From Escherichia coli (GTDB lineage: Bacteria; Pseudomonadota; Gammaproteobacteria; Enterobacterales; Enterobacteriaceae): 64,000 nucleotides of DNA. Made by a program: the position numbers and the translations under genes. Where the stretch lies: NCBI RefSeq assembly GCF_024223415.1, contig NZ_CP100500.1. One strand, given 5' to 3'. The notes below the pieces were generated by a model. It was not told the DNA's origin and ran no database searches. It saw nothing but the letters and a program-made list of their open reading frames with translations. Below, one piece after another: positions 1 to 44,736 of this stretch. Position 1 is the stretch's first letter. Every line of letters starts with the position of its first letter.

Positions 1-205
1 TTTTTGGCGGTTACCATCGCCTCACCTTCCTGGTTCACACAAAGCAACCCTGATTTTCCATGAAAACTTCAGGGTTGAGCCAAAAGCACAAAGACAGTAG
101 ATTAACCAAGGGTACCCGCCACCTGCCAACAGGAACGGTATCCAGTACGTATTAATGACTGACAATTCACATTGCTGTTTTGCCCGCCAGAAGGTGGGCA
201 TTTTT
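1..205 (+). repeat. Tandem repeat unit 1 (~200 bp): 8-bp-stem hairpin near 46-78, then intrinsic terminator; sRNA-like, unrecognised; array continues left of window
   Basis: Window opens inside a T-run matching unit ends; about 80% identity to 203-410 over the core; GC hairpin plus T7 at 3' end. Confidence 0.5.
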
Positions 206-207
206 TT
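181..207 (+). terminator. Rho-independent terminator of repeat unit 1
   Basis: gcccgcc-agaa-ggtgggc hairpin followed by T7. Confidence 0.6.
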
Positions 208-410
208 GGCAGTTATCATGGACGCACCTTCATGACACATATTAAGCAGACCTGATTTTTCCATGAAAAATTCATGGTTGAGACAAAAGCACAAAAACAG
301 TAGATTAACCACGGGTGCCTGCCACCTGACAACAGGAAGGGGTGTCCATTATCCATGATATACAAACGAAAAGTCTTGTCTTTTGCCCGCCGTTGCGCGG
401 GCTTTTTTTT
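203..410 (+). repeat. Tandem repeat unit 2, paralogous to unit 1; 3' third diverged
   Basis: Aligns with 1-205 (shared tttttggc..ccacctt..cctgatttt(t)ccatgaaaa..ggttgag.caaaagcacaaa.acagtagattaacca.gggt.cc.gccacctg.caacaggaa); ends in GC hairpin plus T9. Confidence 0.5.
383..410 (+). terminator. Rho-independent terminator of repeat unit 2
   Basis: gcccgc-cgtt-gcgggc perfect hairpin followed by T9. Confidence 0.65.
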
Positions 411-440
411 TGCCACCCTCACCAGTGAGGGTACCATCAT

Positions 441-662
441 TCAGAGGCGCGTAAGCCACCCGGCGTTAACATCCTGCCCGTCAACCCTGACCGCAGAGTC
501 TGAACGGCAGGCACCGGAAGCAGTACCAAAAACACCTCTGACAAGTTCCGCCACCTTCCCGATATCATCAGGCGCCACATTCCTCACCTCGACAGTGATC
601 CGTGGCGTACCATCATCGTTAACAAGCGTGGCTTTAAGGCTGGTACGACGGGCAAATAACAT
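441..662 (-). CDS. Hypothetical 73-aa protein (MLFARRTSLKATLVNDDGTPRITVEVRNVAPDDIGK...), function unknown
   Basis: Internal ATG of ORF-track ORF 441..728(-); GGAGG-containing SD (cgaagGGAGGgggtgttgATG) about 8 nt upstream; no family recognised; lies antisense to a + strand terminator-bounded segment. Confidence 0.35.
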   Translation of the reverse strand: MLFARRTSLKATLVNDDGTPRITVEVRNVAPDDIGKVAELVRGVFGTASGACRSDSAVRVDGQDVNAGWLTRL

Positions 663-721
663 CAACACCCCCTCCCTTCGGTTCGTTGCACTGGCAGCAC
701 GATACCACCAGGAAAAAGAAA

Positions 722-755
722 AGCCCACAACGTCAGGATTGCGGGCTTTTTTTCT
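722..755 (+). terminator. Rho-independent terminator closing the segment upstream of the copA promoter
   Basis: gcccacaa-N8-ttgcgggc hairpin (one mismatch) followed by T7. Confidence 0.55.
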
Positions 756-820
756 TCAAAAATGGACACTACGTGGACACTGATTAAATAATCCTTTCTT
801 AATCAGACTGTTAAAATGCT

Positions 821-851
821 TGACCTTCCCCTTGCTGGAAGGTTTAACCTT
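821..851 (+). promoter_or_regulatory. copA promoter with CueR (MerR-family) operator: TTGACC -35, 19-bp spacer containing the CCTTCC..GGAAGG dyad, -10
   Basis: ttgaccttccccttgctggaaggtttaacct about 40 nt upstream of the copA ATG; long-spacer MerR-type architecture. Confidence 0.8.
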
Positions 852-889
852 TATCACAGCCAGTCAAAACTGTCTTAAAGGAGTGTTTT

Positions 890-3394
890 ATGTCACAAAC
901 TATCGACCTGACCCTGGACGGCCTGTCCTGCGGTCACTGCGTTAAACGCGTGAAAGAAAGTCTCGAACAGCGCCCGGATGTGGAACAAGCGGATGTGTCT
1001 ATCACTGAAGCGCACGTTACCGGGACTGCCAGTGCAGAACAGCTGATCGAAACCATCAAACAAGCGGGTTATGACGCATCTGTAAGCCACCCAAAGGCTA
1101 AACCGCTGGCGGAGTCATCAATCCCGTCGGAAGCACTGACAGCGGTTTCTGAGGCGCTTCCGGCAGCGACCGCCGATGACGATGACAGCCAGCAGTTGCT
1201 GCTGAGCGGCATGAGCTGCGCCAGCTGTGTCACCCGCGTACAAAATGCGTTGCAAAGCGTACCGGGCGTCACTCAGGCACGGGTAAACCTGGCGGAGCGT
1301 ACTGCGCTGGTGATGGGCAGTGCCTCCCCACAAGATTTAGTGCAGGCGGTGGAAAAAGCGGGCTACGGTGCGGAAGCGATTGAAGATGACGCGAAACGCC
1401 GCGAGCGCCAGCAAGAAACCGCCGTCGCTACGATGAAGCGCTTCCGCTGGCAGGCAATTGTTGCATTGGCTGTGGGTATCCCGGTAATGGTCTGGGGGAT
1501 GATCGGCGATAACATGATGGTCACCGCTGACAACCGCAGCCTGTGGTTGGTTATCGGCCTGATAACCCTGGCAGTGATGGTTTTCGCCGGCGGCCATTTT
1601 TACCGCAGTGCATGGAAAAGCCTGCTGAACGGTGCAGCGACGATGGATACGCTGGTGGCGCTGGGTACTGGCGTGGCGTGGCTCTATTCGATGAGCGTCA
1701 ACCTGTGGCCGCAATGGTTCCCGATGGAAGCGCGACATCTTTATTACGAAGCCAGCGCGATGATTATCGGTCTGATTAATCTCGGCCATATGCTGGAAGC
1801 GCGCGCACGTCAGCGTTCTTCAAAGGCGCTGGAGAAATTACTCGATTTAACTCCGCCGACGGCGCGCCTGGTTACTGACGAAGGTGAAAAAAGCGTGCCG
1901 CTGGCGGAAGTTCAGCCAGGCATGCTACTGCGCCTGACGACGGGCGACCGCGTGCCAGTAGATGGCGAGATTACCCAGGGCGAAGCATGGCTGGATGAAG
2001 CGATGCTGACGGGCGAACCTATTCCGCAGCAAAAAGGCGAAGGCGATAGCGTCCATGCCGGTACAGTGGTACAGGACGGTAGCGTGCTGTTTCGCGCCAG
2101 TGCGGTTGGTAGCCATACCACGCTATCAAGGATCATTCGTATGGTGCGCCAGGCCCAGAGCAGTAAGCCAGAAATCGGTCAGCTGGCGGATAAAATCTCA
2201 GCCGTATTTGTGCCGGTAGTAGTGGTTATTGCGCTTGTCAGTGCGGCAATCTGGTATTTCTTTGGTCCGGCACCGCAGATTGTCTATACCCTGGTGATTG
2301 CCACCACGGTGCTGATTATTGCCTGCCCGTGTGCGCTGGGGCTGGCGACGCCGATGTCGATTATTTCCGGCGTCGGGCGGGCGGCTGAGTTTGGCGTGCT
2401 GGTGCGGGACGCCGACGCGCTGCAACGCGCCAGTACACTCGATACCGTCGTGTTCGATAAAACCGGGACGCTGACCGAAGGGAAGCCGCAGGTTGTCGCA
2501 GTGAAAACATTTGCTGATTTTGACGAAGCGCAGGCGCTGCGTCTGGCGGCGGCACTGGAACAAGGTTCCAGCCATCCGCTGGCACGGGCGATCCTCGATA
2601 AAGCAAGCGATATGCAGCTGCCGCAGGTCAACGGTTTCCGCACATTGCGCGGGCTGGGCGTGAGCGGTGAAGCTGAAGGTCATGCGTTATTGCTGGGCAA
2701 TCAGGCGCTGTTAAATGACCAGCAAGTTGATACTAAAGCGATTGAAGCAGATATTTCAGCTCAGGCATCGCAAGGGGCAACGCCTGTGCTGCTGGCGGTT
2801 GACGGGAAAGCGGTAGCCCTGCTGGCTGTACGCGATCCGTTGCGTAGTGATAGCGTGGCGGCGCTGCAACGTCTGCATAAAGCGGGATATCGTCTGGTGA
2901 TGTTGACCGGGGATAACCCAACCACCGCCAATGCGATCGCCAAAGAAGCAGGGATTGATGAGGTGATCGCCGGGGTGCTGCCGGACGGTAAAGCCGAAGC
3001 GATTAAACGCCTGCAAAGTGAAGGACGTCAGGTGGCAATGGTGGGCGACGGCATTAACGACGCGCCAGCGCTGGCTCAGGCGGATGTCGGCATTGCGATG
3101 GGTGGCGGCAGTGATGTTGCTATTGAAACCGCGGCGATTACCCTGATGCGCCATAGCCTGATGGGTGTTGCGGATGCGCTCGCTATTTCCCGCGCAACGC
3201 TGCGCAACATGAAGCAGAACCTGCTCGGCGCGTTTATCTACAACAGTATCGGTATTCCGGTTGCCGCCGGTATTTTGTGGCCGTTTACTGGAACACTGCT
3301 TAACCCGGTGGTTGCCGGAGCGGCAATGGCGCTCTCGTCGATTACCGTAGTGAGTAACGCCAACCGGTTGCTGCGGTTTAAACCGAAGGAATAA
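890..3394 (+). CDS. copA: Cu(I)-exporting P-type ATPase CopA, 834 aa
   Basis: ORF track; two N-terminal GxxCxxC metal-binding domains, CPC, DKTGT and GDGIND motifs. Confidence 0.97.
1090..1096 (+). other. Programmed -1 ribosomal frameshift site in copA (slippery C CCA AAG) giving the short CopA(Z) chaperone
   Basis: cac cca aag gct at codons 67-70; the -1 frame reads aaa ggc taa and stops at once; reported for E. coli copA. Confidence 0.6.
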
Positions 3395-3399
3395 GTACG

Positions 3400-3524
<125 letters not shown>

Positions 3525-3592: not shown

Positions 3593-4096
3593 AGTAAAAC
3601 TGCCGCTGTAAATCATTACCTGGCCGGTCATGCAGGCATCATTTCTACGGCAAAACTCTTTCAACTTTCTCACACCAGCCTCTCACACTGGATTAATCTT
3701 TTTCTTCTTCACGGTCCTCAGGCACTGGATTGCAGACACAAGCGTAGCTATTCTCCTGAAGATAAACTTTGCGTGGTTCTTTATGCTCTCGGGCATTCTG
3801 AGTCTCTACCCCGGGTAGCTGCCCGGTTTAACATTCCCAGCCACAACATGGTTAAAAACTGGATAAAAGGCTACCGCAAATCTGGTAATGAGGCCTTTAT
3901 CAGGCGCAGGAAGGAGAAAAGCATGACCCGTTCTGATGATACCCATGAAAACGAGGCAAACATGACGCCGGAAGAGATGAAGAATGAGCTGCGTTATCTT
4001 CGCGCAGAAAATGCATATCTGAAAGCCATGCAGGAGCATCTCCTGGAAAAAAAGCGCCAGGAGCTGGAGAAAAAACGAAAGTCATCCAGAGCCTGA
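3593..4096 (+). CDS. IS3-family transposase OrfA (HTH); frame open from 3593 but no in-frame ATG, ORF track starts it at GTG 3773; likely 5' frameshifted
   Basis: Translation ..VNHYLAGHAGIISTAKLFQLSHTSLSHWINLF..RVAARFNIPSHNMVKNWIKGYRKSGNEAF.. plus leucine-zipper-like C-terminus; upstream ATG near 3576 is in another frame and stops after 11 codons. Confidence 0.6.
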   Translation, partial: SKTAAVNHYLAGHAGIISTAKLFQLSHTSLSHWINLFLLHGPQALDCRHKRSYSPEDKLCVVLYALGHSESLPRVAARFNIPSHNMVKNWIKGYRKSGNEAFIRRRKEKSMTRSDDTHENEANMTPEEMKNELRYLRAENAYLKAMQEHLLEKKRQELEKKRKSSRA

Positions 4097-4200
4097 AGTG
4101 CGGACACTGCCAGTCTGACCTGTTAAAGGCTGCAGGGCTGGCCAGAAGCACGCTGTACTACCAGCTGTCACTGCAGAAGGCTAAGGACAAGTATGCTGAT

Positions 4201-4955
<755 letters not shown>

Positions 4956-41189: not shown

Positions 41190-44736
<3,547 letters not shown>

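Follow-up and report, generated by a model that had tools for sequence, protein, structure and literature searches.

The first 817 nucleotides of a 64,000-nucleotide (nt) stretch of Escherichia coli DNA, taken from contig NZ_CP100500.1 of assembly GCF_024223415.1 and called here the window, are the accessory or 'moron' interval between ogr and attR of a ~35-kb P88-like prophage (Xuanwuvirus, Peduoviridae) that is integrated in the promoter of copA. This interval holds a tandem array of short units, which we regard as putative genes for prophage-encoded, Hfq-type small RNAs (sRNAs) that would act in trans by base pairing and that form an uncharacterised family. We give this reading a probability of about one half. 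Alignment and profile searches further demonstrate that the predicted 5' end of the units, namely the promoter and the first ~15 transcribed nt, shares ancestry with the toxin gene hok.

An earlier note on this DNA had described two paralogous tandem units of ~200 bp with plus-strand terminators upstream of copA, and this description is borne out. Tandem Repeats Finder reports an array at 42-410 with a period of 203, 1.8 copies and 78% matches, while a repeat search aligns 54-138 with 257-341 (89%), 1-57 with 203-259 (75%) and the terminator copies 178-210 with 381-413 (76% identity). Terminator-like sites on the plus strand lie at 181-200 (8 bp, followed by T7) and 385-402 (6 bp, followed by T9), and in the pairwise alignment of the two units most of the divergence falls between the 5' hairpin and the terminator. 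The same note was right that the window opens inside a run of Ts and that the array continues to the left: positions 1-5 (plus strand) are the last Ts of the terminator of a class B unit, the rest of which lies left of the window, and two more units are found between ogr and the window edge. In GF60, a near-identical strain (99.9%), L001 12001 is the counterpart of window position 1, and the class B terminator lies at L001 11980-12005.

Each repeat contains the promoter-like pattern GGTTGAG-N16-AGTAGATTA, which occurs twice in the whole window, against 0.00 occurrences expected from shuffles. In unit 1 (class C) the promoter-like element spans 75-103 on the plus strand (TTGAGC, 17 nt, TAGATT) and precedes a predicted sRNA of ~98 nt at 110-207, its start being placed by inference, which would consist of a hairpin (110-143), the motif GUAUUAAUGAC (150-160), UUUU (177-180), the terminator (181-200) and a U-run (201-207). 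Unit 2 (class D) has the same organisation on the same strand: a promoter-like element at 278-306 (TTGAGA, 17 nt, TAGATT; 9/12 in a promoter scan) and a predicted sRNA of ~99 nt at 313-411, with a similarly inferred start, a hairpin at 313-347, the motif UUAUCCAUGAU at 349-359, UUUU at 381-384, the terminator at 385-402 and a U-run at 403-411. Since the conserved promoter lies in mid-repeat, transcription probably covers no more than the last ~95-100 nt of each 203-bp repeat, which as a whole is a spacer plus a mini-gene.

The spacers have features of their own. Spacer 1 (6-74, plus strand, 69 nt) contains a hairpin of 6 bp at 6-21 and, at 45-77, a palindrome of 33 bp, CAACCCTGA-N15-TCAGGGTTG, which overlaps the -35 element of unit 1 and folds into a 14-bp hairpin; the fold of this spacer has z = -3.4. 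Spacer 2 (208-277, plus strand) carries the palindrome in degenerate form at 248-280; in the orthologous copy at L002 6246-6278 it is undamaged. The hairpin that the earlier note had placed near the 5' end of each unit is hence present in both, but the two are not equivalent. A spacer of 69-70 nt stands before every C or D unit and, among all fetched loci, the palindrome core TTTCCATGAAA is confined to units of these two classes.

Beyond the window, the array between the ogr stop codon of GF60 and the att core has four copies of TTTTGCCCGCC-N7-GGGC-T7, and the prophage adjoining serS (L002) has nine copies of the terminator block, eight of them caught by a stricter terminator pattern; the same array is present at prophage ends adjoining ihfA and zapB. 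At a fixed distance upstream of each terminator stands TTGNGN, 17 nt, TA(A/G)ATT, delimiting mini-genes of 115-134 bp that sort into four paralogue classes, A to D, the last two represented by the window units. Class A comes first in the array, starting 15 nt past the ogr stop codon, and class B is divergent to a minus-strand gene of 71 codons.

Conservation across 11 aligned variants of these four classes follows the parts that a short transcription unit would need. Invariant are TTG.G and TA.ATTA (including the -11 A and the -7 T), the 17-nt spacing, the G residues at the predicted start site, UWAUCMAU past the hairpin and UUUUGCCCGCC...GGGC with its U-run; meanwhile the 17-nt promoter spacers have 24-53% identity between classes (hand count on the alignment), and the terminators combine constant stems with variable loops. 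Each predicted transcript is thus bounded by its own promoter-like element and intrinsic terminator, and UUUU-GCCCGCC..GGGC-U7-9, present in 11 of the 11 variants, has the sequence of a candidate Hfq module: UUUU, a hairpin and a long U tail reportedly (Otaka 2011; Ishikawa 2012) make up the Hfq-binding module of enterobacterial sRNAs.

Folding from ~7 nt past the -10 element gives a 5' hairpin, then an unpaired, A/U-rich stretch of ~35 nt, then the terminator, and the unit 1 RNA has a minimum free energy of -30.8 kcal/mol (z = -2.5). Compared with dinucleotide shuffles, the 5' hairpin reaches p = 0.004 in class A, p = 0.004-0.04 in class B and p = 0.02 in class C. Classes A, B and C/D form this hairpin from unrelated sequences, and all keep a layout of ~95-115 nt. 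A consensus by MAFFT and RNAalifold retains the terminator together with a 3-bp helix unlike the hairpin of the single-sequence folds, the latter being lost because the hairpins are off by one column between classes. Inside the predicted transcripts there is no plausible open reading frame (ORF): their AUGs lack a Shine-Dalgarno sequence and the frames read through the terminator.

A search of the window and the two units to its left against Rfam (cmscan, permissive E-values) returned only noise of the terminator type, the best matches scoring 14-24 bits against thresholds of 41-99 and lying mainly on the terminator-bearing 3' ends of the units; no tRNA or tmRNA was found there. With no Rfam family near its threshold, the earlier impression that the units match none of the named tandem sRNA families is confirmed, and queries of the literature by topic and by sequence string returned nothing on the array locus.

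Where do these mini-genes come from? A hok/gef toxin gene directly follows ogr in phages P88 and Chuche; in P884B11 this place is taken by an ORF of equal size that has no annotation. P88 has its hok promoter (TTGCCG, 17 nt, TAGATT) 10 nt past the stop codon of ogr, and the hok RNA made from it starts with GGGUGCCUUUCGG. To this promoter and 5' end, local alignments of 27-34 nt are better than those of shuffles for unit C7 (p = 0.002), unit D (p = 0.006, over the promoter and the next 14 nt) and unit B (p = 0.012). An example of the alignment is ACAG-TAGATTAACCACGGGTGCCTTCCACCTGA in a unit versus ACAGTTAAATTACGCGCGGGTGCCTTTCGGCTGA in hok. Conversely, a profile hidden Markov model of the units (nhmmer) retrieves the hok promoter in other P88-like loci, at E = 0.0027 and E = 0.035.

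The kinship is limited to the 5' end, for the similarity of the 3' parts and terminators of the units to hok is not significant, and the units contain no Hok ORF. The real hok genes of L002 and P88 are annotated and differ from the units in appearance. With the Rfam hok/sok model RF01794, the genuine hok loci of L002 reach 46-48 bits, and window 1-420 has no match at E <= 10. That the units could be a hok/sok locus was consequently rejected, given the missing Hok ORF and RF01794 match; that they could be mimics of Sok was rejected as well, as their complementarity to hok mRNA does not go beyond that of shuffles. As a separate observation, a second copy of hok at L002 6440-6800 is a pseudogene, with its -10 element deleted and its ATG changed to ATA, and a second copy of the 71-codon gene at L002 5555-5770 has internal stop codons.

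The family has a narrow distribution. Units occur in 30 of 5,426 complete E. coli genomes (0.55%), at 139 places with a median of five per genome, none of which is annotated; GF60, Ch1, CM2, CS5L, UPEC F11 and NRZ14408 are among the carrier strains. Units occur also on five metagenome contigs and in three of 80 P88-like loci of IMG/VR, sources that add no variants beyond the same few, and they are confined to a sub-lineage in which Ogr is 98-100% identical to that of the window prophage. Among 50,697 records of sequenced phages, blastn in distant mode found no match to the units; the promoter-plus-terminator pattern had no match in 100,044 GTDB species representatives, in which the pattern of the terminator by itself matched 34 single, unrelated terminators and no arrays. 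An nhmmer match at window 43272-43321 was dismissed as a chance likeness to the terminator inside a coding region. In Rahnella, an intergenic sRNA-like element adjoining a cspA-type gene (L126 8005-8110 in Rahnella sp., plus nine more loci of this genus) resembles the linker and terminator of the units with an nhmmer E-value of 2e-7, although it was found via the terminator pattern and the likeness may in part reflect ascertainment; this element matches no Rfam family.

Under the reading that we favour, a sigma-70 promoter (TTGAGN, 17 nt, TAGATT) in mid-repeat would drive an RNA of ~95-100 nt in the lysogen. This RNA would comprise a 5' hairpin, a single-stranded stretch with UWAUCMAUGA followed by a variable part, and a 3' module for Hfq binding (UUUU, a GC hairpin and U7-9). 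The variable single-stranded stretch could then give each paralogue a separate set of targets, whether among host mRNAs or those of competing phages. The family would have originated from the promoter and 5' end of a gene for hok toxin mRNA by loss of the toxin part, and its repeated terminators might double as recombination boundaries at which minus-strand cassettes are swapped (the 73-amino acid (aa) ORF in the window; hicAB, hok and the 71-aa gene in relatives). We are led to sRNA genes because the positions of promoter, terminator and Hfq module are invariant while other positions have diverged, and because in the genuine pseudogenes of these arrays the promoter or the reading frame is gone. 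To go further and see in the toxin-less descendants of hok a fast-diversifying, tandem, RNA-only module for accessory or exclusion functions near attR, shuffled with toxin-antitoxin cassettes at the terminators and aiming each paralogue at different mRNAs of the host or of rival phages, is a speculation that we consider rather improbable.

Several observations weigh against sRNA function. The G+C-rich hairpin of class D is no better than that of shuffles (p = 0.45), and the sequence variants known in all, about nine, are too few for true covariation. Differences between orthologs fall mainly in the RNA body for unit 1 and mainly in the spacer for unit 2, which is a mosaic pattern and not one of clean purifying selection. 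Searches for targets were negative: in ~280 kb, both strands included, there were 16 complementary 11-mers versus 27 expected; there was no above-chance complementarity to the prophage, P88, P2, the P4 satellite or the window's 63 kb of host sequence; and complementarity to the neighbouring genes (for the 71-aa and 73-aa proteins, hicAB and hok) did not exceed that of shuffles. The family is moreover young and seldom met, and recent spread may account for its conservation; decayed elements are demonstrable in the same region, namely the pseudogenes of hok and of the 71-aa protein.

These very points lend substance to the most serious competitor, according to which the units are non-functional relics of hok that lost the toxin, multiplied through unequal recombination while prophage ends accumulated, and yield transcripts without a role. 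It would account for the homology to the hok promoter and 5' end and for the position of hok, for the company of a hok pseudogene, a stop-bearing 71-aa pseudogene and a relic att arm in the same arrays, for a very narrow distribution with scarcely any sequence diversity, and for target searches that found nothing. Yet relics would hardly be expected to keep the key promoter positions, the 17-nt spacing, the terminator stems and the U-tract invariant in four diverged classes while neighbouring positions went down to 24-53% identity, nor to retain in all classes an architecture of ~95-115 nt whose 5' hairpin is made of different sequences; and the real pseudogenes of those arrays, unlike the units, are without promoter or frame. 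We judge this explanation unlikely, if still to be reckoned with.

A second competitor shifts the selected feature to the repeated terminator, which would insulate host genes, here copA, from late transcription of the D-ogr region and the phage from read-in, the conserved blocks of ~40 nt serving at the same time as homologous linkers for the gain and loss of cassettes. Copies of TTTTGCCCGCC-N7-GGGC-T7 do close all cassettes in all arrays, the minus-strand genes have their stop codons directly against these terminators, the cargo of the last slot differs among sister prophages (73-aa ORF, hicAB or hok), and the window array equals an array of the L002 type minus the hok pseudogene, cut exactly between two copies of the terminator. 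A single terminator would suffice for insulation, however, and the conserved promoter, the 17-nt spacing, the 5' hairpin and the linker motif are left without explanation. We find it quite doubtful that the terminators alone are what selection acts upon, even if this reading is partly shown; it is compatible with sRNA genes and does not exclude them. Last, it is very improbable that the units encode small proteins, either from the 31-codon ORFs that the earlier note had reported and that do lie at 60-155 and 263-358 or from short ORFs inside the transcripts, for even though both units have plus-strand ORFs of 26-31 codons, those of 31 codons begin upstream of the conserved promoter and cross it, without a Shine-Dalgarno sequence and without the hydrophobicity of type I toxins, those starting inside the predicted RNA (155-235 and 355-783) pass through the terminator hairpin, and the frames are not kept in units of classes A and B; the earlier preference for non-coding RNA over the 31-codon ORFs is supported.

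The genomic setting of the array explains why the DNA upstream of copA looked unusual. The earlier note had reported that no 5' end of glsA is present there, and its absence is real, as similarity to K-12 begins only at window 818; what that note did not recognise was the prophage end at the copA promoter and the kinship with the hok promoter. The gene glsA is not where expected because the P88-like prophage sits between it and copA: the order in GF60 is glsA, int, a C-like repressor, replication genes, portal, terminase and P2-type capsid genes, tail genes, D, ogr, ~1.5 kb with the array, and copA. This prophage, annotated at 4356345-4389844 in GF60, has the gene order of the P2 family, and its Ogr is 72-73% identical to that of P88 (73%) and P884B11 and ~36% identical to that of P2.

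The att core, CTTGACCTTCCCCTTGCTGG, comprises 20 bp at 818-837 (plus strand) and is identical at attL of GF60, at attR of the window and in K-12; it stands at both prophage junctions and once in uninterrupted K-12, and the junction alignment has its flanks changing exactly there. We take this core to be the -35 hexamer plus the left half of the CueR operator in the copA promoter. Integration restores the copA promoter at attR, where the DNA upstream of the -35 element is all phage, and leaves at attL a half-site facing the integrase gene. The host gene copA follows at 890-3394 (plus strand; an ORF of 834 aa, annotated as copA in GF60). The empty site is common: copA-proximal DNA is matched in 5,422 genomes, nearly all of them over just ~70-100 bp, and 16 genomes cover at least 80% of window 1-889, so that the region flagged by the earlier note is indeed exceptional, being found at copA in only 16 of the 5,426 complete E. 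coli genomes.

At 763-780 (plus strand) TGGACAC occurs twice in direct orientation, 11 bp apart, and the two copies are probably arm-type sites of attR for the integrase. Direct repeats of TGGACA(C) are present in L002 as well (L002 4950-5010 and 7225-7245), adjoining the junction and, as a relic copy, in mid-array, and this relic arm suggests that the L002 array is a new prophage end joined to an older prophage remnant. Two other interpretations of the array were rejected in this context. An Ogr-dependent late promoter in the units is contradicted by the distribution of TGT-N12-ACA, which occurs in the intergenic late-promoter regions of the prophage and not in the units; an array of integron-like cassettes would call for an IntI integrase with attI beside the array and attC inverted repeats at the cassette ends, but the sole integrase is a tyrosine recombinase of the P2 type, encoded at the opposite end of the prophage. 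The cassette boundaries within the array are plain terminators with U-runs.

The segment between unit 2 and the att core, which the earlier note had listed as a third, longer segment, is terminator-bounded as described; it is not a third unit and contains a minus-strand ORF, a bidirectional terminator and the att arm. The ORF, at 441-662, is an orphan of 73 codons (similar to the hypothetical protein WP_029400554, and annotated as a hypothetical protein in GF60), preceded by a strong Shine-Dalgarno sequence, GGGAGGGGG, at 668-676 on the minus strand, 5 nt before the ATG. Among 5.8 billion proteins, its homologues form four clusters, two of which have frameshifted C-terminal thirds, a hint that no more than its first ~45 residues may matter, and there is no match to it in Pfam, PHROG, PADLOC, NCBIfam or PDB. 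Between two lineages, the substitutions are distributed 6/4/5 by codon position, with 10 non-synonymous and four synonymous codon changes, and its sequence thus leaves the coding status uncertain. The intrinsic terminator at 719-750 is predicted to be bidirectional from its layout (inverted repeat 712-730/739-757, scored as terminator-like on the minus strand and followed by a T-run on the plus strand too) and separates the last cassette from the att arm.

Other prophages carry different cargo in this slot. In prophages of the same lineage adjoining ihfA, hicAB replaces the 73-codon ORF (L003 7436-8036; L004 7409-8009), and the stop codon of hicB abuts a class D terminator; in those adjoining serS and zapB, the hok pseudogene lies between unit D and the 73-codon ORF. 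The 71-codon gene (L001 11537-11752, minus strand) is always divergently paired with a class B unit, and a perfect 18-bp palindrome, ATGAAATTATAATTTCAT, lies between the two (L001 11848-11865) and may be a shared operator. Its 71-aa product matches only PHROG 14142, a family of unassigned function, with no match in Pfam, NCBIfam, PADLOC or PDB, and has no clear relationship with the 73-aa protein. None of the small proteins of the array region matches a PADLOC defence model. Elsewhere in the same prophage, between the replication genes and portal, a gene for a toxin of the RelE/ParE family adjoins a helix-turn-helix-domain gene (L012 16087-16801), and this locus is a second cargo site of the toxin-antitoxin type. 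On the host side of the window, palindromes of the repetitive extragenic (REP) type directly follow copA (3404-3482, with a sub-threshold match to naRNA4), and an IS3-family element at 3773-4923 (orfA 3773-4096, orfB 4201-4923) is not annotated at this place in GF60.

If the units are expressed, an unannotated sRNA family would join the short list of regulatory RNAs in P2-type phages, and there would be a route leading from the gene of a type I toxin mRNA to an sRNA gene that stands by itself. The locus also shows that P88-like phages have, in the ogr-att interval, a cargo site in which toxin-antitoxin cassettes are exchanged at repeated terminators, and the replacement by phage DNA of all that lies upstream of the copA promoter could alter copper regulation in carrier strains. 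None of these implications is surprising in kind, given that the element is rare and its function putative.

Among known systems, the closest in general form are the Hfq-dependent sRNAs of E. coli and Salmonella prophages, such as DicF, IpeX, AsxR/AgvB, the Pas sRNAs, svsR and IsrK: these too are short cargo genes of temperate phages, each with a promoter to itself and an intrinsic terminator that ends in a long run of Us, often with several paralogues per genome. The units differ from them in having no match in sequence or structure, the Rfam matches to the terminator ends of RyhB, AgvB and AsxR remaining below threshold (17-24 bits versus gathering scores of 55-63), and in their location, for those sRNAs reside in lambdoid prophages and the units stand in tandem in the ogr-att interval of the P2 family. 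Copies of the Pas sRNAs, for instance, are distal and not tandem (bioRxiv 10.64898/2026.05.13.724894).

With the hok/sok locus of P88, the units share the position after ogr, a promoter of the form TTGNNN, 17 nt, TA(A/G)ATT whose spacer is comparably rich in A, and a transcript predicted to open with identical bases, GGGUGCCUU. The 5' end of the hok mRNA is closed by pairing with a downstream GG..ACC/UCC element, the long-range tac-fbi pairing; in the predicted folds of the units, pairing with such an element would close the 5' end in a hairpin of ~35 nt. Unlike hok/sok, the units have neither a Hok nor a Mok ORF, nor an antisense promoter for Sok.

As adjacent duplicates on the same strand, with conserved ends and a diverged middle, the units resemble OmrA/OmrB, PrrF1/2, Sib and Rdl, which however belong to the core genome and have known regulators and targets, or are antitoxins to the ibs and ldr toxins; no toxin ORF lies opposite the units, as it does for Sib and Rdl, and no Rfam family matches them. 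The locus finally recalls the accessory hotspots of P2, tin/old and Z/fun (Rousset et al. 2022, PMC9122126), where cargo of the toxin-antitoxin or defence type is swapped within a conserved P2-type genome, but unlike these hotspots it occupies the ogr-attP interval, and what is repeated there are mini-genes that appear to be non-coding. From its sequence, the locus is best filed outside every curated family, as a so far uncharacterised family of candidate sRNAs at a familiar type of site.

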